A stretch of 63,871 nucleotides of DNA, filler included, from Reclinomonas americana ATCC 50394 (GCA_048213135.1; 8 parts of 3 records of this genome joined end to end with filler, not necessarily neighbours in it), one strand, 5' to 3'; shown: positions 52,264-63,871, counted from the first letter of the whole stretch. Notes: generated by a model not told the origin, from the sequence alone. A program made the numbers and translations.

Positions 52264-54201
52264 ATGCTTCCCTCGTCGTCCCTGTTCGCCTGCAACGGCG
52301 ACCCGCAACGCTTGCCACAACCCCTGCAATCGTGCCCCGGCGACGATGCATGCATACTGGAGGAGCAAAAACTGCTGGCCGCCGCCATCTCCACCCAGTT
52401 GCCTCACACCAATCCGGCGTACAGCGCCTCACTGGCCGCAGTCTCCGCCATGCCCGTGCTGGTGCATCCGGCGGTGCTGGCGCGCATGGCCGAGGTGCAC
52501 GATGCGGTGGTGGCCGGTGTGAGTGCCGCCGTACAGCAGTGGTATTCGACGCCGCACATGCTGCCGCTGAGTGAGCGAGCCGTGCGAGTGATGGAGGCGC
52601 ACCGCGGTGTGCCGTACCTCGCACCGGGTACGCTGCGACCGGACTTGTTGCAATGCCGCCGCACGGGCCAGCTGCTGGTGTGCGAGATCAATGCGCGCTT
52701 CCCGCTGAACGCCTTTGTGGTGTCGGCGGTGGCCGCCCAGCACTTGCATCGACGGTCGCTCACCAGTGGCTCCGTGCTGGCGCGCATGGGAGTCACTGCG
52801 TGTGGTGCTACGCTGGCGCTATTGGACGCATTGCGAGCGCGCTTTGACGCCTCACAGCCGGTGTTTGTGTTGCATGAACGAGAAACGCCGCACGATGTGG
52901 GACTGATGGAGCACGTGCTGCGTGGCATGCGGGTGGTACACTGCCCTCCGTCGGCGCTGACGGCCGGCCGCGGTGGCGATGACTCGTCACTGTGGTGCAC
53001 GGCGACTAACGAACCGGTGACGCAGGCCATTGTGGAGTTGACGCAGGGTGAAATTCTGGCGCTCGACGACGCCACCCTCGACGCCTTGGCGCAACTGTCG
53101 GCCGCCGGTCGAACGCTGAACGACCTGCGCACGATTTTCGTGGCCCACGACAAGCGTCTCCTGGCCGTACTTCGCAATGCGAGGCACTGGCTGCCGTCGC
53201 TGGACGCCACCGNNNNNNNNNNNNNNNNNNNNNNNNNNNNNNNNNNNNNNNNNNNNNNNNNNNNNNNNNNNNNNNNNNNNNNNNNNNNNNNNNNNNNNNN
53301 NNNNNNNNNNNNNNNNNNNNNNNNNNNNNNNNNNNNNNNNNNNNNNNNNNNNNNNNNNNNNNNNNNNNNNNNNNNNNNNNNNNNNNNNNNNNNNNNNNNN
53401 NNNNNNNNNNNNNNNNNNNNNNNNNNNNNNNNNNNNNNNNNNNNNNNNNNNNNNNNNNNNNNNNNNNNNNNNNNNNNNNNNNNNNNNNNNNNNNNNNNNN
53501 NNNNNNNNNNNNNNNNNNNNNNNNNNNNNNNNNNNNNNNNNNNNNNNNNNNNNNNNNNNNNNNNNNNNNNNNNNNNNNNNNNNNNNNNNNNNNNNNNNNN
53601 NNNNNNNNNNNNNNNNNNNNNNNNNNNNNNNNNNNNNNNNNNNNNNNNNNNNNNNNNNNNNNNNNNNNNNNNNNNNNNNNNNNNNNNNNNNNNNNNNNNN
53701 NNNNNNNNNNNNNNNNNNNNNNNNNNNCCGCACGCACTGCAGCGCCGTCCACCGTGGCCATCGACGACGCAAACAGGCGAGCGGTTGCGGGTACACCGGC
53801 CATCGGCATCACGGGGAAGAGAGGCAAGCCGTCGCGACTCAGTGCCACCAGCTCACCGGGCGACGCACGAAACACGCCAGGGCCGTAAAACACGCCATCC
53901 AACGACAGCAGGGTGCTCACCAGGTGCAGGCCGTCGCGGCGAGAGCCGTCGGCATGCGTCACCGACACGCGCTGCTGCTCAATGTACGGCTGCACCACTG
54001 CACTGTCGGTGACGGCCGCCTCACGCACCGCCTCCTCAAACTCGCCATCCGACGCACACTCGTGCTGCATGCAAATCCCGACGCCCTTGCCGAGGGAGCA
54101 CGGCTTCAGCACAGCGGTGCCCGACAGCGCCGAGAACGTAGCTGGTGCGTAGTCACGCGCCGCAATGGTCGGCACCACGCACTCACGCAGCGCGGCCTGA
54201 G
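52264..54201 (+). CDS. Circularly permuted ATP-grasp amide ligase domain: 52264-53212(+) continued by inverted contig 54201-53728(-)
   Basis: LRPDLL...LLVCEINARFPLNAF, NDLRTIFVAHDKRLLAVL, VLKPCSLGKGVGI, VVQPYIEQ, GPGVFRAS; exact in-frame join acc g|ct cag gcc (LDAT-A-QAALRECVVPTI). Confidence 0.8.
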
Positions 54202-54301
54202 NNNNNNNNNNNNNNNNNNNNNNNNNNNNNNNNNNNNNNNNNNNNTTAATTAATTAANNNNNNNNNNNNNNNNNNNNNNNNNNNNNNNNNNNNNNNNNNN
54301 N

Positions 54302-56404
54302 CTGGCCGAGCACGGAGTGGCAGTGGTTGGCTTGGGCGATGCGCTGGACTCGGTGGATGCGCTGCAGACGAATGACACGCGGCTCCAGTTCCAGTCGCTG
54401 GTGCTCGACGGCCTCGGCGCACACGCCAGGCATCACAACGAGAAGGCTCACGATTTTGTGTGGGAGGTGGCCCCCGCGCCCCCGTCGTTACCGACTGCTT
54501 CCGAGTCGACCGCTGTGCCACTGGCGCGTTCACAGACTGCCGAGCCGTTTGACGTGCACACTGACGCCAGCTTTGAAGAGCCGCCGCCGCGCTTCATGGT
54601 GCTGGCGTCGGTGCGTGCTGATCGTTGCGGTGGCGGGCTGTCGTCCTTTGCCTCGGTCGCCGACGCCGTGTCACGACTCGACGGCGAGGATGTGGCCGTG
54701 CTGCTGCGCACGGTGGTGCAGTGGCAAGTTCCGCCAGAGTTTCGCCACTCCAGCGACGACGGCGATGAGCCGTCGCTAATGGCGCCGGTGTTGATGAGCG
54801 AGTCGCGCGCTCGTTTGCGTCGCGATATTATCCGCACCGCGCATCTGAGTGTCGACGAGGCCGCGGCGTTTTGGCGTGCCTTTGACCGCTTTGAGGAGCT
54901 GCTGCATCGTGCCTGCGATGCCAACACCTTTCTGCTGCCGGAGCGGTGCCTGCTGTTCCTCGATAACCAGCGCATGGTGCACTCGCGCACCGAGGTCCGC
55001 GACAAGCGCCGCATGTTATGGCGCATTCGCTACGATCCGGCGCAGCGACCCGAGCTCGATCGCGTGCTGCTCGCCGCTTCATCGCATCCACTCTATCAGC
55101 AACAGCCGCAGCCGCAGCCGCAGCCGCAACCTCCACCGACGTGGCTCTCGCTTGCCACGTGGCCCGTGCAGAACAAGCGGCAATTGCTCGACCGCGTCTC
55201 TGCCGTGTTCGCCAACACGTACTCTGGTCGAGGTGGGGTGTACTGGAGCCCGTCCGGTGGCACCACAGCGACGCCCGGCACGCCGGCACACTGCTCGGCA
55301 ATGCCGTCGTCACTGGCCGACAACGCACTGATGCGTTCGATGCTGCGCAACCTGCAACGCTCACGCGGTGTGATTGGTCCCGACACGGTGTGCGTGAGTC
55401 TGTTTGGCTGTGGCAATCTGGTGCGCTCCATGGAGGTGCAGGGTGAGATTCTGGTGGGTGCCGGTGCCACTCACCTGCCCATGAGTTCGTTGGCCACCGA
55501 TGCCGACACGGTGGCCTGCTGCACGCACTTCCAGGCCAACATGCTGTGCGGGTGGGGTTCTCGTCTCCTCCAGCTGGCCGCGTATTGCGCGCGTCACCAC
55601 GGCACAGAGCACTACTTGCGCTCGGTGCGGACAGTGTTGCACGGAGGGGAGCCACTGAGTGCAAGTCAACGCACGGCGCTCCGCAAAATGTGCCATCCCG
55701 AGTGCAGGCTAATGGCGATTTACGGCAGCGCCGAGGCCGGCGTGTTTGCGCTGGGCGAGGAGGTCAACAACGGCGCCGAGGTGTATCGCGTGCTCACGGA
55801 TGCGGTCCACCTAGAGGTGCTGCCGGTCGATGCCGATCCGGATTCTGGCGAGCTGGTGCCCGACGGCGAGTTTGGGCGCTTGGTGGTGACGAATCTGGTG
55901 CGCCGCTCGCACCCACTGGTGCGCTTCGACACTGGCGACTATGTGAGGTTCACCTCGGCAGCACGCGATACGATTGAGGTGCGTGGTCGCGTGCCGACCA
56001 CCACAGCAACGCCCTTTGGCAGTGTGTTTGTCAAGTGGAGCGAGGTGGTGGACGCGGTGACGCCGGCCCTCGCGGACGGCAGTGTCGGTGCGCTCTATCA
56101 GTTGTGGATACACCCGCCACGAGCAAGTCCGTCTCCACGAGTGTCGAGTGATGGCGTGCCGTACTTTACCGAGGTCGACTTGATGGTGTGCCCCGTCACC
56201 GACGGCGGAGCAGCGTGGCCGACAATCGTGCGCGAGATCGAGCACCGCCTGCGCCAGTTGTTTGATCCCGCTGCCACACTGGTGCAGCAAGTGCGCGTGG
56301 TGTCGGTGGACGACGCAACGCAGCTGCGCCGGTCGCCACGCAGCAACAAATTGTTGCACTTTGTGGACTTGCGGGCTCGGCCAGAGGTGTCGGCGTCGAA
56401 ATAG
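54302..56404 (+). CDS. TauD/TfdA Fe(II)/2-oxoglutarate dioxygenase domain fused to a PaaK/F390-synthetase-like adenylate-forming ligase; open at the 5' end
   Basis: LAEHGVAVV, FDVHTDASF (HxD), GGGLS, LDNQRMVHSR (distal His), KRRMLWRIR; QPQP linker; SPSGGTT, HGGEPL, YGSAEAG, GRLVVTNL...PLVRFDTGD, VRGR, RSNKL; 700 codons with no intron. Confidence 0.9.
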   Translation: MAEHGVAVVGLGDALDSVDALQTNDTRLQFQSLVLDGLGAHARHHNEKAHDFVWEVAPAPPSLPTASESTAVPLARSQTAEPFDVHTDASFEEPPPRFMVLASVRADRCGGGLSSFASVADAVSRLDGEDVAVLLRTVVQWQVPPEFRHSSDDGDEPSLMAPVLMSESRARLRRDIIRTAHLSVDEAAAFWRAFDRFEELLHRACDANTFLLPERCLLFLDNQRMVHSRTEVRDKRRMLWRIRYDPAQRPELDRVLLAASSHPLYQQQPQPQPQPQPPPTWLSLATWPVQNKRQLLDRVSAVFANTYSGRGGVYWSPSGGTTATPGTPAHCSAMPSSLADNALMRSMLRNLQRSRGVIGPDTVCVSLFGCGNLVRSMEVQGEILVGAGATHLPMSSLATDADTVACCTHFQANMLCGWGSRLLQLAAYCARHHGTEHYLRSVRTVLHGGEPLSASQRTALRKMCHPECRLMAIYGSAEAGVFALGEEVNNGAEVYRVLTDAVHLEVLPVDADPDSGELVPDGEFGRLVVTNLVRRSHPLVRFDTGDYVRFTSAARDTIEVRGRVPTTTATPFGSVFVKWSEVVDAVTPALADGSVGALYQLWIHPPRASPSPRVSSDGVPYFTEVDLMVCPVTDGGAAWPTIVREIEHRLRQLFDPAATLVQQVRVVSVDDATQLRRSPRSNKLLHFVDLRARPEVSASK

Positions 56405-56520
56405 CTAGAGTAATTCTAATGATTAAGTAGCACTAATGAAAGAATAGTGAGTGAGTGACTCGTGTATCATTTCGCTTCCTTGATTCACTTCCGTCCTACA
56501 CGCACAGCACTCACTGTTCC

Positions 56521-57903
56521 TCACTCGTACACTGGATAGCCGGTGTACACGAGATCCGAGACGCCGCACTGGTCGACACCGATCTTGAAGTAGCCTGCAC
56601 GAGAGAACATCAAGAGTCAATCCAACGCAAACGCAACAAAGAAGTAAGCACATCGGAGACACCGCCAAACCGTTCATGCCAAAGTTGGTTCCCCACGAGT
56701 TTTGAGCTGAGAGTGCAGTGAGTACACCCGAGGTCGCCGTCGCAGTCGCAAAATAACACACAAAATATACAACTCACCCAACCAGTACGCGACGCCATTC
56801 TCTGTGCCGTACCCAAAGACCTTGACCGAGTGCAGGCCCTCGTAGCCACCATGCTGGTGCACTGCACATGAAACAAATCAGTGGATATTCCTACGCATGC
56901 ACATATACGATGCGTCACGTCGGACTCACCGTACACGCCACTAGAGTACGAGTAGAAATCGCCTGTGAGAGGGCGAGGGAGGAGTCAGTCTCGATGGAGC
57001 ATGTGCCAAGAGGGGGCTGCTTGAGCGACGCACTGTACACGTTAAAGTCGACGCTGACGGGTCCATCGAGGAGAGCCTGGCGAATCTCATCCAGGTGCTT
57101 CTTCGGATCCAGCAGGCTGCCGACGTGCGTCACATTCTGCGCGTGGTACAGCTTGTAGTTGCCGCCGTCCTCGCACTGCTTCGGGCAGCTGGGCACGTGG
57201 CCTGTGTGCGTCAGTCGAGGTGAGTATGTGCGAGGAGAAGATCGAGGCCATCTCTTCGCGCGTGACGAACCATCACCGCTGACGTACGGCACGCAGTCGA
57301 GCGTGGTGACGCCACGACTGGCCAAAAAGTCCCACGCAAAGTTCGGCAGCGAGCCCATGGTGCAGTGCAGGCTGCGAGCAGGTGTGAAAGAGGGACAACA
57401 CACCGACAGCAAACATCGTGGAATGCATCGCAACTTGATGTGCTCGCAGCTCAGCAAATCCTGCGGCGAGAGCGTCACATTGACGGTGCCGTTCGAGTGG
57501 ATGCAGAAACGATCGGAGAGCGCCTCGGTGGATCCAAACGCCTGTGAATGTGGTGTCAGCAGTCCTGATTTCGTGTAGCACGGAATGCCAAGCGAGTCGA
57601 GTCGTCATGACACACGATTGCTAACTGCTGACACAACGCTTCGTTCTTCTTGCAAGACAAGAGCTCTTCTTGTGCTCCAACTCACCCAGCACGATCCGCA
57701 GTCTCCCTGATTCAGCACCTGGCGCGGATAGCACTCTGGCCGCACACGATAAGGCCCTTCCTTCTTCCATCCTGAGAACACCAACACACATCATACACAA
57801 CACACCTGGCCACGCCGTCGCCGCATCAAACTCGGCCGGCAGCCCCGAATCCTCCGAAAACGTCGACGGAACGTGCATCTCCTCCAGTGGCGAGCGACCG
57901 CCC
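56521..57903 (-). CDS. Cathepsin B-like papain-family cysteine protease; multi-exon, 5' end missing
   Basis: LPAEFDAATAWP, NQGDCGSCW/AFGSTEALSDRFCI, LSPQDLLSC, GPVSVDFNVY, GLHSVKVFGYG...YW, NSWGTNFGMNG/YFKI. Confidence 0.95.
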
Positions 57904-58029
57904 TGCGCACACACACACACTCAAGTAAGNNNNNNNNNNNNNNNNNNNNNNNNNNNNNNNNNNNNNNNNNNNNTTAATTAATTAANNNNNNNNNNNNNNN
58001 NNNNNNNNNNNNNNNNNNNNNNNNNNNNN

Positions 58030-58693: not shown

Positions 58694-59214
58694 ATGGAGT
58701 TGATGGTGAAGCGTCTGTCGGCAACCGCCACCCTGCCCACTCGTGCCTCAGAGCTCGCAGCTGGCTACGATCTGTCAAGGTGTGCACAATCTCTCTCTCT
58801 CACACACTTTCATCACTCACCTCTCTCTCACACACACTCAGCGCGGAGGAGTCTGTGGTCCCCGCGCGCGGTCGCGCACTGATCAAGACCGACTTGGCGA
58901 TCGCCGTGCCTCTGGGCCACTACGGGCGAGTGGCACCGCGCTCGGGCTTGACATGGAAGAATGGACTCGACACGGGCGCTGGCGTCATCGACGCCGACTA
59001 CCGTGGCAATGTCGGTGTGATCCTGTTCAACCACTCGGATCAGGATTTCGCAGTGCATGTGGGCGATCGCATCGCGCAGTTGATCATTGAGCGAATTTCC
59101 ACGCCGCAAGTGCTGGAGACTCTCGGCGATCTGCCAGACACGGTGCGCGGGGAGGGCGGCTTTGGATCGACGGGAGTTGGCTCGTCGTCGTCTGCTGCTG
59201 CTGGCGTGCAGTGA
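58694..59214 (+). CDS. dut: Trimeric dUTP diphosphatase; one intron ~58780-58841
   Basis: [47 protein letters not shown]. Confidence 0.97.
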
Positions 59215-60577: not shown

Positions 60578-60679
60578 NNNNNNNNNNNNNNNNNNNNNNN
60601 NNNNNNNNNNNNNNNNNNNNNTTAATTAATTAANNNNNNNNNNNNNNNNNNNNNNNNNNNNNNNNNNNNNNNNNNNNCC

Positions 60680-61192
60680 TATGAGCACTATGGTGTCGCG
60701 CCCGACATCATGTCGATCGCCAAGGGCATCGGCGGCGGCTTCCCGATGGGCGCCTGCCTCGCCACCGAGGAGGCGGCTTCCGGCATGACGCTCGGCACCC
60801 ACGGCACCACCTTCGGCGGCAATCCGCTCGCCATGGCGGTCGGCAACGCCGTGCTCGACGTCATCCTGGCGCCGGGCTTCCTCGACCATGTCCAGAAGAC
60901 GGCGCTGCGTCTGCGCCAGTCGCTGGCCCAGCTCAAGGACCAGCACCCGCAGGTGATCGAGGAGATCCGCGGCGAGGGGCTGATGCTCGGCCTCAAGCTC
61001 AAGACCCCCAACACCGATTTCGTCGCCCAGGCCCGCGCCGCCGGCCTGCTGGTGGTCGCTGCCGGCGACAATGTCGTGCGCCTGCTTCCGCCCTTGATCA
61101 TCGGCGAGAGCGAAGTGGCTGAAGGGGTGGCGCGGCTCGACAAGGCGGCGGGCGCGGTCGAGGCGGAACTCGCCCGGCCGGCAGCGGAGTGA
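60680..61192 (+). CDS. argD: Acetylornithine aminotransferase, 3' part (bacterial)
   Basis: [15 protein letters not shown] (PLP lysine), [28 protein letters not shown]; directly upstream of argF. Confidence 0.95.
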
Positions 61193-62123
61193 GCATGATG
61201 TCTGCGACGCGTCATTTTCTCGATCTCTCGGATTTCTCCGCCGGCGAGCTCAGGTCCATCCTCAAGACTGGCGAGGAGATCAAGGCCCGCCGGCGCACGC
61301 CGGCAGCTGCCGGCGACCGCCTGCTCGAGGGCAAGGTCATCGCCATGATCTTCGAGCAGCCCTCGCTGCGGACCCGCGTCTCCTTCGACGTCGGCATCCG
61401 CGAGCTCGGCGGCTCGCCGATGATGGTGACCGGTCAGGAGATCGAGCTCGGCGAGCGCGAGACCATCGCCGACACCGCCCGCGTGCTGTCGCGCTATGTC
61501 GACGCGATCATGATCCGCATGCTCGACCATGATTCCGTGGTCGAGATGGCGAAATACGCCACCGTGCCGGTGATCAACGGCCTGACCAAGCGCCAGCATC
61601 CCTGCCAGGTCATGGCCGACGTCATGACCTTCGAGGAGCGCAAGGGCCCGATCAAGGGCAAGCGCATCGCCTGGACCGGCGACACCAACAATGTCCTGAC
61701 CTCCTGGGTCCATGCTGCCGGAAGGCTCGATTTCGAGCTCGCCATCGCGACGCCCGAGGAGTTGGCCCCCCGCCGGCCCTGCTCGACTGGGCCCGCAAGC
61801 AGGGCGCCAAGCTGCAGCTCACCAGCCGGCCCGAGGCAGCGGTCGAGGGCGCCGACTGCGTCATCACCGATTGCTGGGTCTCGATGGGCGACGAGGAAGG
61901 CACGCGCCACAACCTGCTGCGGCCCTACCAGGTCGACGAGCGTCTGCTCGGCCGCGCCGAGAAGGATGCGATCTTCATGCACTGCCTCCCGGCTTCGCGT
62001 GGCGAGGAAGTGACCGATCAGGTCATGGATGGCCCGCAATCGGCTGTCTTCGACGAGGCCGAGAACCGGCTGCATGCCCAGAAGGGCATCCTGGCCTGGT
62101 GCTTCGGCGGAGTGGCGGCCTGA
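61189..62123 (+). CDS. argF: Ornithine carbamoyltransferase; apparent 1-nt frameshift at C-run 61766-61771
   Basis: [28 protein letters not shown], then in the shifted frame [32 protein letters not shown]. Confidence 0.96.
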
Positions 62124-62232
62124 TGGCGGACGCCTCGCCCACGGGCGCACCCGACGATCGGGTGCTGCCTTTCGCCGTGCCGGATCTGGACCTGCGCGGC
62201 CGGGTCGTCAGGCTCGGCCCCTCGCTCGACCA
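62123..62232 (+). CDS. hslO: Hsp33 redox chaperone, 5' fragment
   Basis: DDRVLPFAVPDLDLRGRVVRLGPSLD; TGATG coupling to argF; argD-argF-hslO is a familiar alphaproteobacterial order. Confidence 0.85.
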
Positions 62233-62281
62233 NNNNNNNNNNNNNNNNNNNNNNNNNNNNNNNNNNNNNNNNNNNNNNNNN

Positions 62282-62930
62282 CGGCGGCGAGGCGGGTGCC
62301 GGCATGGACGGCGCTGGCGCCGAGATGCGGCTTGGAGGAATGCGCGGCGAAGCCGGTGATCGCGGTGAAGAAGGTGCGAATGCCCTTGTGCGCGTCAGCG
62401 AGTTCGAGCGAGGTCGGCTCGCCGACGATGACGGCCCGCGGCTTCGGCAGGCTCCTGCCCATCGCGGCGATGCCGTCGACGACGCCGAGGCAGGTCACCT
62501 CCTCGTCATAGGAGAAGAACAGGTGGATCGGGGTCTTCAGGTCAGCCGCGAGGAAATCCGGCACCAGCGCCAGCGCGAGGGCGACGAAGCCCTTCATGTC
62601 GACCGAGCCGCGGCCATAGGCCTTGCCGTCTTCGACATGCAGGGTGAACGGATCGCGCGACCAGGCCTGGCCCTCGACCGGCACGACATCGGTATGGCCG
62701 GAGAGGACGATGCCGCCCTTATCCTGCGGGCCGATCGTGGCGAAGAGCGCCGCCTTGTCGCCGGCCGCATTGGGAAAGCGTACGGACGGCACGCCCCAGC
62801 CGGTGAGATAGTCCTCGACGAAGGCGATCAGGTCGAGATTGGATTTGTGGCTCACCGTGTCGAAGGCGACGAGGCGGGCGAGCATGTCGAGCGGCTGGTA
62901 GCGCTGCCCGGTCGGGGTTGCGGTCGTCAA
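62282..62930 (-). CDS. argE: Acetylornithine deacetylase (M20 family), 3' truncated by a gap
   Basis: LVAFDTVS, LSGHTDVVP, YGRGSVDMKGF, SYDEEV, VIVGEPT, AHKG, AAHSS. Confidence 0.93.
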
Positions 62931-63319
62931 TGCAGAACCTTCTTTACATAGGGCGAGTCGAGCGGGAACAGCGGCACCTCGACATCGAAGCGCGCGCCGT
63001 CCTCGCCGAGCATGGCATAGACGCCGCGCATGCTGCCGTCGGGCGTCATCAGCGGGCAGCCGGAGGTGTAGCTGAAGCGCTCGCCGGGCTGCAGCACCGG
63101 CTGCTGGCCGATCACGCCGTCGCCACGGACCTCGTGCACCTCGCCACGCCCGTCAGTGATGACCCAATGCCGCGTCATCAACTGCATGGTGCGCGACGAC
63201 AGGTTCTCGATCTCGATCGTATAGGCCCAGAAATAGCGGCCTTGATCGGGGGTGGATTCGCTGTCCATGAACTTGGGCGAGGCGGTGACGCGCACGCCAT
63301 GCGTTTCGGCCTGGTACAT
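62927..63319 (-). CDS. apaG: ApaG protein
   Basis: YFWAYTIEIEN...QLMTRHWVITD...VRGDGVIGQQPVLQPGERFSYTSGCPL.TPDGSMRG. Confidence 0.96.
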   Translation of the reverse strand: MYQAETHGVRVTASPKFMDSESTPDQGRYFWAYTIEIENLSSRTMQLMTRHWVITDGRGEVHEVRGDGVIGQQPVLQPGERFSYTSGCPLMTPDGSMRGVYAMLGEDGARFDVEVPLFPLDSPYVKKVLH

Positions 63320-63697
63320 GATCGCAGCTCCGTGCCGTCTGCGCGCGGGGCGCGCCGGGGCGGCGGGAAGGCCTTGTTATGACCTCGGGCGGCGCAGCGT
63401 CAATGCTGCCGATCGGCTGTAGACCCGATGATCCGCGGTTCCGGCATGTGGACAACCTGATGCCGGACTCGCCAGCGCCATCCCGGTGCGGCAGGAAGGA
63501 CGATCAATCTCGCGGCGGGCCGCCTTTGCGCTGCGCTTCACAAAATGGTCTCGGATCAGAGCCTTTCGAATGCAAGGCCTTCCATGCCTCAGCAGAGGCC
63601 TGATAGGGGAAAGGCGCTGTGGATGACGAGGACAATGGCGGCTCGAGCATACCGTTGTATGTAGACTATCAGCCAGACCCATCCGGTGTGAGAAACG

Positions 63698-63871
63698 ATG
63701 ACTTTTGGAATTTGGCCGTCGCAGTGGATCCGGCGAGCTATTGAAGCGGGCGTCATCTACTCCGGTACGCCGATCAATGAAGCCGCGATCCAGCCGGCGA
63801 GCCTGGATCTTCGATTGGGCGACCGAGCTTATCGTGTTCCCACCAGTTTTCTGCCGGGCAAAGGAAATTCC
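63698..63871 (+). CDS. dcd: dCTP deaminase (alphaproteobacterial long type), 5' part
   Basis: MTFGIWPSQWIRRAIEAGVI...IQPASLDLRLGDRAYRVPTSFLPG; not in the ORF track because it runs off the window end. Confidence 0.85.
   Translation, partial: MTFGIWPSQWIRRAIEAGVIYSGTPINEAAIQPASLDLRLGDRAYRVPTSFLPGKGNS

Follow-up and report, generated by a model that had tools for sequence, protein, structure and literature searches.

A single intronless gene in a Reclinomonas americana scaffold probably encodes a fused E-64-type synthase

E-64 is a standard laboratory inhibitor of cysteine proteases and the parent of drug candidates. In this report we analyse a gene found at positions 52264 to 56404 of a stretch of 63,871 nucleotides from the genome assembly of Reclinomonas americana ATCC 50394 (GCA_048213135.1), referred to throughout as the window, whose reconstructed product carries an ATP-grasp ligase (B), a TauD-type Fe(II)/2-oxoglutarate (2OG) oxygenase (A) and an adenylate-forming ligase of the ANL family (D), in the order B-A-D. 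The closest described system is the biosynthesis of E-64 itself, published in 2025, in which three separate enzymes of Aspergillus flavus were reported as the minimal cassette for the production of E-64 analogues (PMC12568646).

According to the main text of that work (PMC12568646), Cp1A, an Fe(II)/2OG oxygenase, converts free fumarate into (2S,3S)-trans-epoxysuccinate (t-ES); Cp1B, whose structure is available (PDB 9cjn), is an ATP-grasp ligase that joins trans-epoxysuccinate to a hydrophobic L-amino acid with formation of ADP; and Cp1D is an amide-bond synthetase of the ANL family, which adenylates the Cp1B product and adds an amine, for example putrescine, cadaverine or agmatine. The cluster also codes for a pyridoxal phosphate (PLP)-dependent decarboxylase, Cp1C, as its fourth gene, which is described there as dispensable. 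The closest structural relatives of Cp1B are given as homoglutathione synthetase and YgiC/YjfC, and its residues R139, D141, E163 and N165 surround the nucleotide, their replacement by alanine having abolished or significantly attenuated activity (PMC12568646). The same text reports a cyanobacterial cassette that is about 20% identical to the fungal enzymes and whose oxygenase still made t-ES; MfaA, which made t-ES, is the oxygenase of the 'mfa' cluster of Microcoleus (PMC12568646).

When compared with this background, the gene in the window probably encodes a fused E-64-type synthase, that is, a single intronless gene of B-A-D architecture whose product would be an epoxysuccinyl-peptide amide, with the chemistry assigned by analogy with Cp1A, Cp1B and Cp1D. 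The gene is not contiguous in the deposited sequence, as 26 runs of N interrupt the scaffold that makes up the window, many of them contig linkers of the form N44-TTAATTAATTAA-N44, and the coding sequence is distributed over three pieces (Table 1). Translation of piece 1 gives a frame at 52264-53211(+) of 316 codons from the ATG, with a spare g at 53212; the frame of piece 2, read as the reverse complement of 54199-53729, gives 157 amino acids, preceded by ct (54201-54200) and followed by a spare g (53728); and piece 3, at 54302-56404(+), gives 700 amino acids and a stop codon, the rebuilt protein having 316 + 1 + 157 + 1 + 700 = 1175 residues. As a reference we used P0005, an intact protein of 1157 residues from a chytrid assembly, onto which BLASTP placed residues 16-314 of piece 1 at 9-316 (51% identity, 2e-83), residues 4-157 of piece 2 at 323-477 (56% identity, 6e-43) and residues 1-691 of piece 3 at 479-1156 (50% identity, E 0.0). 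The pieces are thus collinear and non-overlapping on P0005, with which the multiple alignment concurs, and intact counterparts of 1119-1186 residues, collinear with the rebuilt protein, were found in chytrid and diatom assemblies and in metagenomes.

The same block order was found by tblastx in the metagenome contigs L033 and L034, where an uninterrupted open reading frame (ORF) of 1154 codons (L034, 6421-9885) is matched by window positions 52387-53202(+), 54199-53729(-) and 54302-56374(+), the middle block being on the opposite strand. Furthermore, when 8000 candidates were scored with piece 3 as the query, 10 proteins reached E <= 0.001, and eight of these have 1033-1186 residues, far more than the 700 of the query. 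The first-pass annotation of this DNA, made from the window alone, had claimed that the three fragments reassemble into one frame through an exact join between 53212 and 54201 and a second join in which about two nucleotides are missing, and residue counts against the homologues bear this out. At join 1 a single codon is required, and g plus ct supplies it as GCT, with 0 bases absent despite the 515 Ns; at join 2 a single codon is again required, namely codon 475, of which only the first base, g, is present, such that 2 nt are absent. The block spacing in the window, as measured by tblastx, agrees with that in L034: it is 12 nt in both at join 1, while at join 2 it is 3 nt in one sequence and 1 nt in the other. 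From these exact codon counts it follows that the 515-N gap hides nothing, and that the second junction is short of two bases. Because the pieces are collinear on P0005, and because the uninterrupted ORF of L033/L034 has them in the same order, we consider them, on sequence comparison, to be one continuous intronless eukaryotic gene of about 3.5 kb, which was split into contigs, the middle one being placed backwards.

The link with the E-64 pathway is anchored in the N-terminal domain, at residues ~1-475. Pieces 1 and 2 had no match in the Pfam copy searched, GSH_synth_ATP (PF03917) included, and nothing usable in NCBIfam; their homologues carry the precomputed family PF28486, which is absent from that copy. 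A profile of the family (A1) matched 9cjn_A, 'Ligase Cp1B', with an E-value of 5.4e-53, profile positions 14-443 aligning with positions 51-515 of the chain, and phmmer with single pieces detected 9cjn at 2.2e-11 for piece 1 and at 4.1e-4 for piece 2. A profile of bacterial standalone relatives also retrieved Cp1B, at 2e-75, followed by homoglutathione and glutathione synthetases at around 1e-4. In the phmmer alignment the RPD and EIN motifs of Cp1B fall on R125-P-D127 and E141-I-N143, making R125, D127, E141 and N143 of the window the equivalents of Cp1B R139, D141, E163 and N165. This quartet (R122, D124, E138 and N140 in P0005 numbering) is invariant in 8/8 full-length fused proteins; in 30 standalone proteins the arginine, aspartate and glutamate are invariant, and the asparagine nearly so. 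An AlphaFold model of P0005, obtained from an eight-sequence alignment (pLDDT 71.6, pTM 0.72), provides fold evidence for this homologue, rather than for the window protein: its best fold match in the PDB, by Foldseek, was 9cjn (E 2.7e-21, TM 0.65 on the target, 26% identity), and further matches included the human, soybean and yeast glutathione synthetases (2hgs, 3kal and 1m0w; 1.8e-13 to 8.4e-13). Taken together, these comparisons identify the N-terminal ~475 residues as a predicted Cp1B-type, glutathione-synthetase-like ATP-grasp ligase.

The second domain scores 58.1 bits against a cut-off of 27 for TauD (PF02668), residues 15-242 of piece 3 covering positions 22-266 of the 267 in the profile. 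The HxD...H triad and the downstream arginine are present as H86-T-D88, H227 and R241 of piece 3, which we take to have the iron-triad and downstream-arginine roles of the family; in the rebuilt protein H86 is H561. The 29 fused or clustered sequences of this TauD subfamily share one common signature, ARS.T..EF..HTD.SFE...DN.R..HAR, with 14 invariant columns, including the distal histidine and three arginines, with H227, R173, R229 and R237 being invariant, and D88, R241 and R171 nearly so; these conserved arginines would suit acidic substrates. The third domain is separated from the oxygenase by a linker at which the homologues vary in length, as seen in the multiple alignment, and has an AMP-binding match (PF00501) of 37.4 bits against a cut-off of 29.9, at residues 386-529 of piece 3. 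It also has SPSGGTT, YGSAE, TGD, GR and a C-terminal lysine, which we take to be the core motifs of the ANL family. PaaK-family ligases were the best fold matches for the C-terminal part of the P0005 model, and PaaK-like families also came nearest in NCBIfam, but the score of 51.3 bits with its PaaK equivalog (TIGR02155) is far below the cut-off of 646.3, which indicates a domain that is PaaK-like, and not PaaK proper. The glutathione-synthetase-type ATP-grasp, TauD and PaaK-type ANL assignments of the first-pass annotation are therefore in agreement with these profile and fold matches, and all of the motifs that it named are present (Table 1).

The three domains were also related to bacterial genes, using a sample of 32 loci, each with a standalone Cp1B-like gene, drawn from Obscuribacterales, two Vibrio species, Rickettsiales, Acidimicrobiia, Arenicella, cyanobacterial metagenome-assembled genomes (MAGs) and others. 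In tblastn searches with the window domains, a TauD relative was detected in 21/32 loci (27-36% identity) and an ANL relative in 22/32 (25-33% identity), always adjoining the ATP-grasp gene. With the P0005 probes, 16 loci had all three, 6 ATP-grasp and ANL, 5 ATP-grasp and TauD, and 5 ATP-grasp alone, where a contig edge truncates several of the incomplete loci, and where Pfam shows a more distant TauD as the neighbour in one 'two-part' locus, L001. Clustered separate genes, for which a search had been suggested together with the architecture, hence do exist in bacteria, in the orders A-B-D or B-D-A. In whole genomes (5/5), the only match to the TauD part (4e-16 to 1e-23) is inside the cluster, as is the best match to the ANL part (1e-15 to 5e-32), with a second match near 1e-7 listed in 3/5. 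No further gene was found to be conserved around seven of the clusters. By these sequence matches, each domain of the window protein has its specific relatives in a bacterial cassette of three genes, which is presumably of the same kind as the 'mfa' cluster of Microcoleus, although none of the loci retrieved is named Microcoleus.

Turning to the fusion itself, an exhaustive HMMER search with piece 1 retrieved 203 representative proteins at E <= 0.001. Domains were scored, using our own hidden Markov models, in 154 proteins, comprising 150 of these 203 representatives, the other matches of piece 3 that bear the N-terminal domain, and piece 1. At least 108 have the ATP-grasp alone (piece 1 being counted here), at least 28 ATP-grasp plus TauD, at least 15 the full B-A-D architecture and at least 3 TauD plus ATP-grasp, and many of the short forms may be cut gene models. 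The named tri-domain members come from the diatoms Cyclotella and Stephanocyclus, and from the chytrid assemblies of Obelidium and Nowakowskiella. The two closest named matches, both from a Siphonaria assembly, are partial (578 and 569 residues) and flagged as UNVERIFIED_CONTAM by NCBI, and the closest cluster, P0004, with 58% identity to piece 1 and 51% to piece 3, has 20 members, all metagenomic. A FastTree phylogeny was obtained for 132 N-terminal domains, having excluded piece 1 and 21 rows with a span under 330 residues, two N-truncated tri-domain proteins among them. All of the tri-domain rows (13/13) belong to a single 22-row clade whose SH-like support is 99, in a tree that was midpoint-rooted for drawing only, is effectively unrooted and has several long branches flagged; this topology is compatible with a single origin of the fusion.

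Within the Cp1B-like family we also observed P0146, a metagenomic protein of 1052 residues in which the Cp1B-like domain is fused behind IucA/IucC and FhuF domains. This pairing recalls that of the siderophore-synthetase-like AnkE with the ATP-grasp AnkG of the NK13650 compounds, as mentioned in PMC12568646.

By analogy with the E-64 enzymes, the 1175-residue polypeptide would be a natural B-A-D fusion of the enzyme types of the minimal cassette, working as follows. The oxygenase domain would act on a small dicarboxylate, most likely fumarate, to give trans-epoxysuccinate, as Cp1A does. The ATP-grasp domain would convert one epoxysuccinate carboxylate into an acyl phosphate, at the expense of ATP to ADP, and join it to an L-amino acid, as in Cp1B. 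The ANL domain would then adenylate the carboxylate of the amino acid, with ATP going to AMP and PPi, and join it to an amine, as in Cp1D. Neither a carrier protein nor CoA would be needed, and the resulting epoxysuccinyl-peptide amide would inhibit cysteine proteases of the papain family covalently. Assignment of residues 476-737 as a fumarate epoxidase and of residues 760-1175 as an N-acyl-amino-acid amide synthetase is suggested by enzyme class, by gene context and by the Cp1B anchor. That a small modified peptide or amide would be assembled without carriers was anticipated by the first-pass annotation, and the E-64 pathway, as described in the main text of PMC12568646, indeed does so with these three enzyme types, each as a protein of its own. 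Of the oxidative tailoring domain that was also predicted, the oxidation can be kept but not the tailoring, as this is more likely the first, warhead-forming step. Similarly, the statement that no characterised protein has this architecture is upheld for the fusion, but not for the three-enzyme system, which has been characterised (PMC12568646).

Several results weigh against this reading. In one rival the fused logic is the same and the chemistry another: the TauD domain would hydroxylate or desaturate a free amino acid or some other small acid, and a pseudo-tripeptide lacking the epoxysuccinyl warhead would be built by the pair of ligases. The nearest solved relatives of the oxygenase, in profile searches against the PDB, use free amino acids, namely, asparagine oxygenase (AsnO, 1.1e-8), clavaminate synthase (4.3e-5) and lysine 3-hydroxylase (4.1e-4), and the main text of PMC12568646 never places Cp1A in the TauD family. 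Two word-index searches for standalone oxygenase relatives gave no named fungal protein: the TauD part retrieved one short protein, and the 29-sequence alignment 22 of 8000 candidates, the named ones being bacterial. A look-alike cluster in the Atlas has Ascomycota members (score 0.88), which is a lead only. The kinship of the oxygenase and ANL domains with Cp1A, Cp1D and MfaA is suggested by context and enzyme class. The ATP-grasp half is itself nearer to bacterial standalone proteins (e.g. 4.8e-24) than to Cp1B (2.2e-11), and AnkG, about 30% identical to Cp1B, is proposed, as PMC12568646 notes, to join other substrates, which means that membership in the Cp1B family does not fix the acid substrate; P0146, with its IucA/IucC partner instead, points in the same direction. 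No Pfam match to a PLP decarboxylase was found in the 116 ORFs of the window between 31.5 and 63.9 kb, and the 45 ORFs scanned near 7 of the bacterial clusters gave none either, although this enzyme, being dispensable (PMC12568646), is not a defining part of the cassette. Finally, among 401 genomes of the phylum of bacterial locus L014 the single strong ATP-grasp match was in the genome of L014; 22 other genomes have a distant family of 460-610 residues, and in 5 loci of this family that were examined no TauD or ANL of the present subfamily occurs within ~8 kb. Nonetheless, the triad of enzyme classes equals exactly that of the minimal E-64 cassette, the cyanobacterial oxygenase made t-ES even though its cassette is only about 20% identical to the fungal one (PMC12568646), and the conserved arginines of the oxygenase subfamily would fit an acidic substrate. 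We thus regard a product with a different acid as unlikely, albeit as the most serious of the alternatives.

The two other alternatives concern the gene, rather than its chemistry. Both joins rest on homologues and not on reads, and the deposited scaffold does have the middle piece on the opposite strand, as would be expected if the 474-bp segment were truly inverted in the genome, and the gene a broken pseudogene. However, both ends of this segment coincide with assembly gaps, which makes its orientation the choice of the scaffolder, and the three frames are open, with no stop codon and with 50-56% identity to intact proteins, join 1 being exact to the base; a true inversion seems to us highly improbable. 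Somewhat less remote, yet still improbable, is a real gene from some other organism, be it a contaminant or a co-cultured eukaryote. Bacterial-type contigs at 60.68-63.87 kb of the scaffold, the contamination flag that NCBI has put on the closest named relatives, from a chytrid assembly, and the metagenome-only nature of the nearest cluster, P0004 (20 members), could all be read in this way. Against it, piece 3 shares its contig with an intron-bearing gene of the papain family, and the GC content of the locus is within the range of the window; moreover, this scenario would alter the host and not the identity of the gene. The fused E-64-type synthase continues to be our preferred reading.

Table 1. 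Features of the fused gene and of the bacterial-type contigs in the window.
Feature	Position	Strand	Remarks
Piece 1, ATP-grasp (Cp1B-like)	52264..53212	+	Residues 1-316 from ATG start, plus first base of codon 317
LRPD	52633-52644	+	R125, D127 of piece 1
CEINARF	52681-52701	+	E141, N143 of piece 1
515-N run	53213..53727	.	Spurious as a gap; zero coding bases absent
Piece 2, C-terminal half of ATP-grasp domain	53728..54201	-	474-nt contig, inverted in scaffold; bases 2-3 of codon 317, residues 318-474, base 1 of codon 475
LKPCSLGKGVGI	54109-54074	-	In piece 2
GPGVFRAS	53884-53861	-	In piece 2
Contig linker N44-TTAATTAATTAA-N44	54202..54301	.	Two coding bases of codon 475 absent
TauD/TfdA-type Fe(II)/2-oxoglutarate oxygenase	54302..55087	+	Joined residues 476-737
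HTD	54557-54565	+	
MVHSR	54974-54988	+	Contains distal His
RIRYD	55022-55036	+	
Gln/Pro-rich low-complexity linker between oxygenase and ANL	55088..55147	+	Shows YQQQPQPQPQPQPPPTW; boundaries approximate
PaaK-like ANL (adenylate-forming) domain and stop codon	55148..56404	+	Residues ~760-1175
SPSGGTT	55247-55267	+	ANL motif
YGSAE	55721-55735	+	ANL motif
FDTGD	55925-55939	+	ANL motif
VRGR	55979-55990	+	ANL motif
SPRSNK	56333-56350	+	Includes terminal Lys (K1158)
Bacterial-type uninterrupted ORFs	60678-63871		GC 0.65-0.68; same scaffold as intron-bearing genes
Aminotran_3 fragment (ArgD-type)	60680-61189	+	
Ornithine/aspartate carbamoyltransferase (OTCase)	61123-62120	+	Two frames
M20 peptidase	62283-63152	-	
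ApaG	62930-63376	-	

With regard to the host, the contig of piece 3 (54302-57929) also carries a cathepsin-B-like gene of the papain family at 56520-57930(-) (Peptidase_C1, 1.3e-11), in which the cysteine of CGSCW, the histidine and the asparagine are present, and which has several short GT-AG introns. This gene is convergent with the fused ORF, their stop codons being ~120 nt apart. A Peptidase_C1 neighbour was absent from 61/61 related loci, and for this reason we treat the adjacency of a likely inhibitor synthase and a papain-type protease, striking as it is, for now as a coincidence. Other eukaryotic genes nearby encode a dUTPase, RPL14e, WD40 and CAP-Gly proteins, and in view of these neighbours the fused gene is nuclear and eukaryotic; it has no introns itself. 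The GC content of the locus, 0.59-0.65, falls within that found elsewhere in the window. The contigs at 60678-63871 look like foreign or contaminant sequence, put in this place by the scaffolder. As a separate observation, the dUTPase gene, of the trimeric type (58697-59214, +), has one GT-AG intron of ~70 nt with many CT/CA repeats.

Some of the loci related to the fused gene deserve a comment of their own. In Candidatus Aquarickettsia rohweri (L007, 5857-8409), one stop-to-stop ORF of 851 residues spans the ATP-grasp and ANL matches, and may represent a B-D fusion of two domains, which is absent from the 154 scored proteins. In five metagenome contigs (L051, L052 and L056-L058) ATP-grasp and TauD genes occur together, with the ATP-grasp match split as if by introns, and in two of the five (L051 and L052) ANL matches lie on the opposite strand a few kb off; these clusters are probably eukaryotic, perhaps fungal, and part of the way towards fusion. 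As for the distant bacterial family mentioned above, its proteins in L074-L078 (525-609 residues) match only parts of the Cp1B-like profile at E ~1e-19 to 1e-21, and in the two loci that were scanned, L074 and L078, a protein of 839 residues with no Pfam match adjoins the gene.

As far as the literature searched is concerned, the word 'fusion' is absent from the main text of PMC12568646 and from its preprint, and 'fused', 'chytrid' and 'diatom' are absent from the text of the paper. Queries combining epoxysuccinic, ATP-grasp and amide bond synthetase yielded E-64 biosynthesis only in that same work, and a query on Cp1A gave nothing further on E-64 biosynthesis among the matches listed; epoxysuccinyl together with chytrid or diatom returned no literature, and PF28486 none either. 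The chemistry is known from separate enzymes; its occurrence in one chain, and the distribution of that form among protists, appear to be undescribed. With the three enzyme types of the E-64 cassette in one protein, this eukaryote may make an E-64-type inhibitor from a single gene. That the 1175-residue polypeptide is a complete carrier-free factory for such an inhibitor, and the founding studied member of one protist fusion clade derived from a bacterial-type three-gene cassette, is a broader view that we hold tentatively, and that we stop just short of endorsing.

If true, these microbial eukaryotes would use covalent inhibitors of proteases in their chemical ecology, and the neighbouring cathepsin-B-like gene could be a linked target or a resistance copy. 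The range of likely producers, so far Dikarya and cyanobacteria, would widen to include early-diverging fungi as well as diatoms and other protists, for which the literature searched records no metabolite of this kind. A natural fusion would also be a Rosetta-stone confirmation of the three enzymes as one unit, and would offer a one-gene biocatalyst for pseudopeptides bearing a warhead. On the practical side, the locus illustrates that scaffold gaps can conceal intact genes, in this case behind a 515-N run with no missing base and one inverted contig. Other N-runs of the scaffold may likewise conceal intact genes, for example the pieces of a WD40 gene at ~33.5-37 kb, which are on both strands.

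How does the window protein compare, overall, with the known systems? Its N-terminal domain has the fold of the eukaryotic glutathione and homoglutathione synthetases (2hgs, 3kal, 1m0w), to which it has a weak profile similarity of ~1e-4; unlike them it would use a different acyl substrate, and there is no similarity over the full length of the sequence. The PaaK-family ANL enzymes NatL2, AjiA1 and ClxA are CoA-independent ligases. The C-terminal domain shares fold and core motifs with this family, although it is far under the PaaK equivalog cut-off (51 versus 646 bits). In the dapdiamide pathway the epoxidation takes place at a different stage. That system resembles the window protein in that an ATP-grasp and an ANL-type amide ligase (DdaF/DdaG) and an Fe/2OG epoxidase (DdaC) lead to a pseudopeptide with a warhead, as referred to in the main text of PMC12568646, but these are separate proteins, and the window match to DdaG has an E-value of only 0.12.

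Closer to the window protein are the tri-domain proteins from chytrids, diatoms and metagenomes, which have the same B-A-D architecture, 1062-1281 residues and 35-58% identity, and which differ in being annotated as hypothetical only, none having been found studied in the literature searched. The bacterial cassettes hold the best or only genome-wide match of each window domain, but as separate genes in the orders A-B-D or B-D-A, rather than as a B-A-D fusion. With Cp1A, Cp1B and Cp1D, finally, the window protein has in common the same three enzyme classes, and an ATP-grasp domain that is homologous to Cp1B over its full length and that keeps the four catalytic residues. It differs from them in the low similarity to Cp1B (26% identity for the homologue P0005 in the fold alignment), in the absence of a PLP decarboxylase gene near the ORF and in that what are separate genes in Aspergillus are one polypeptide here.

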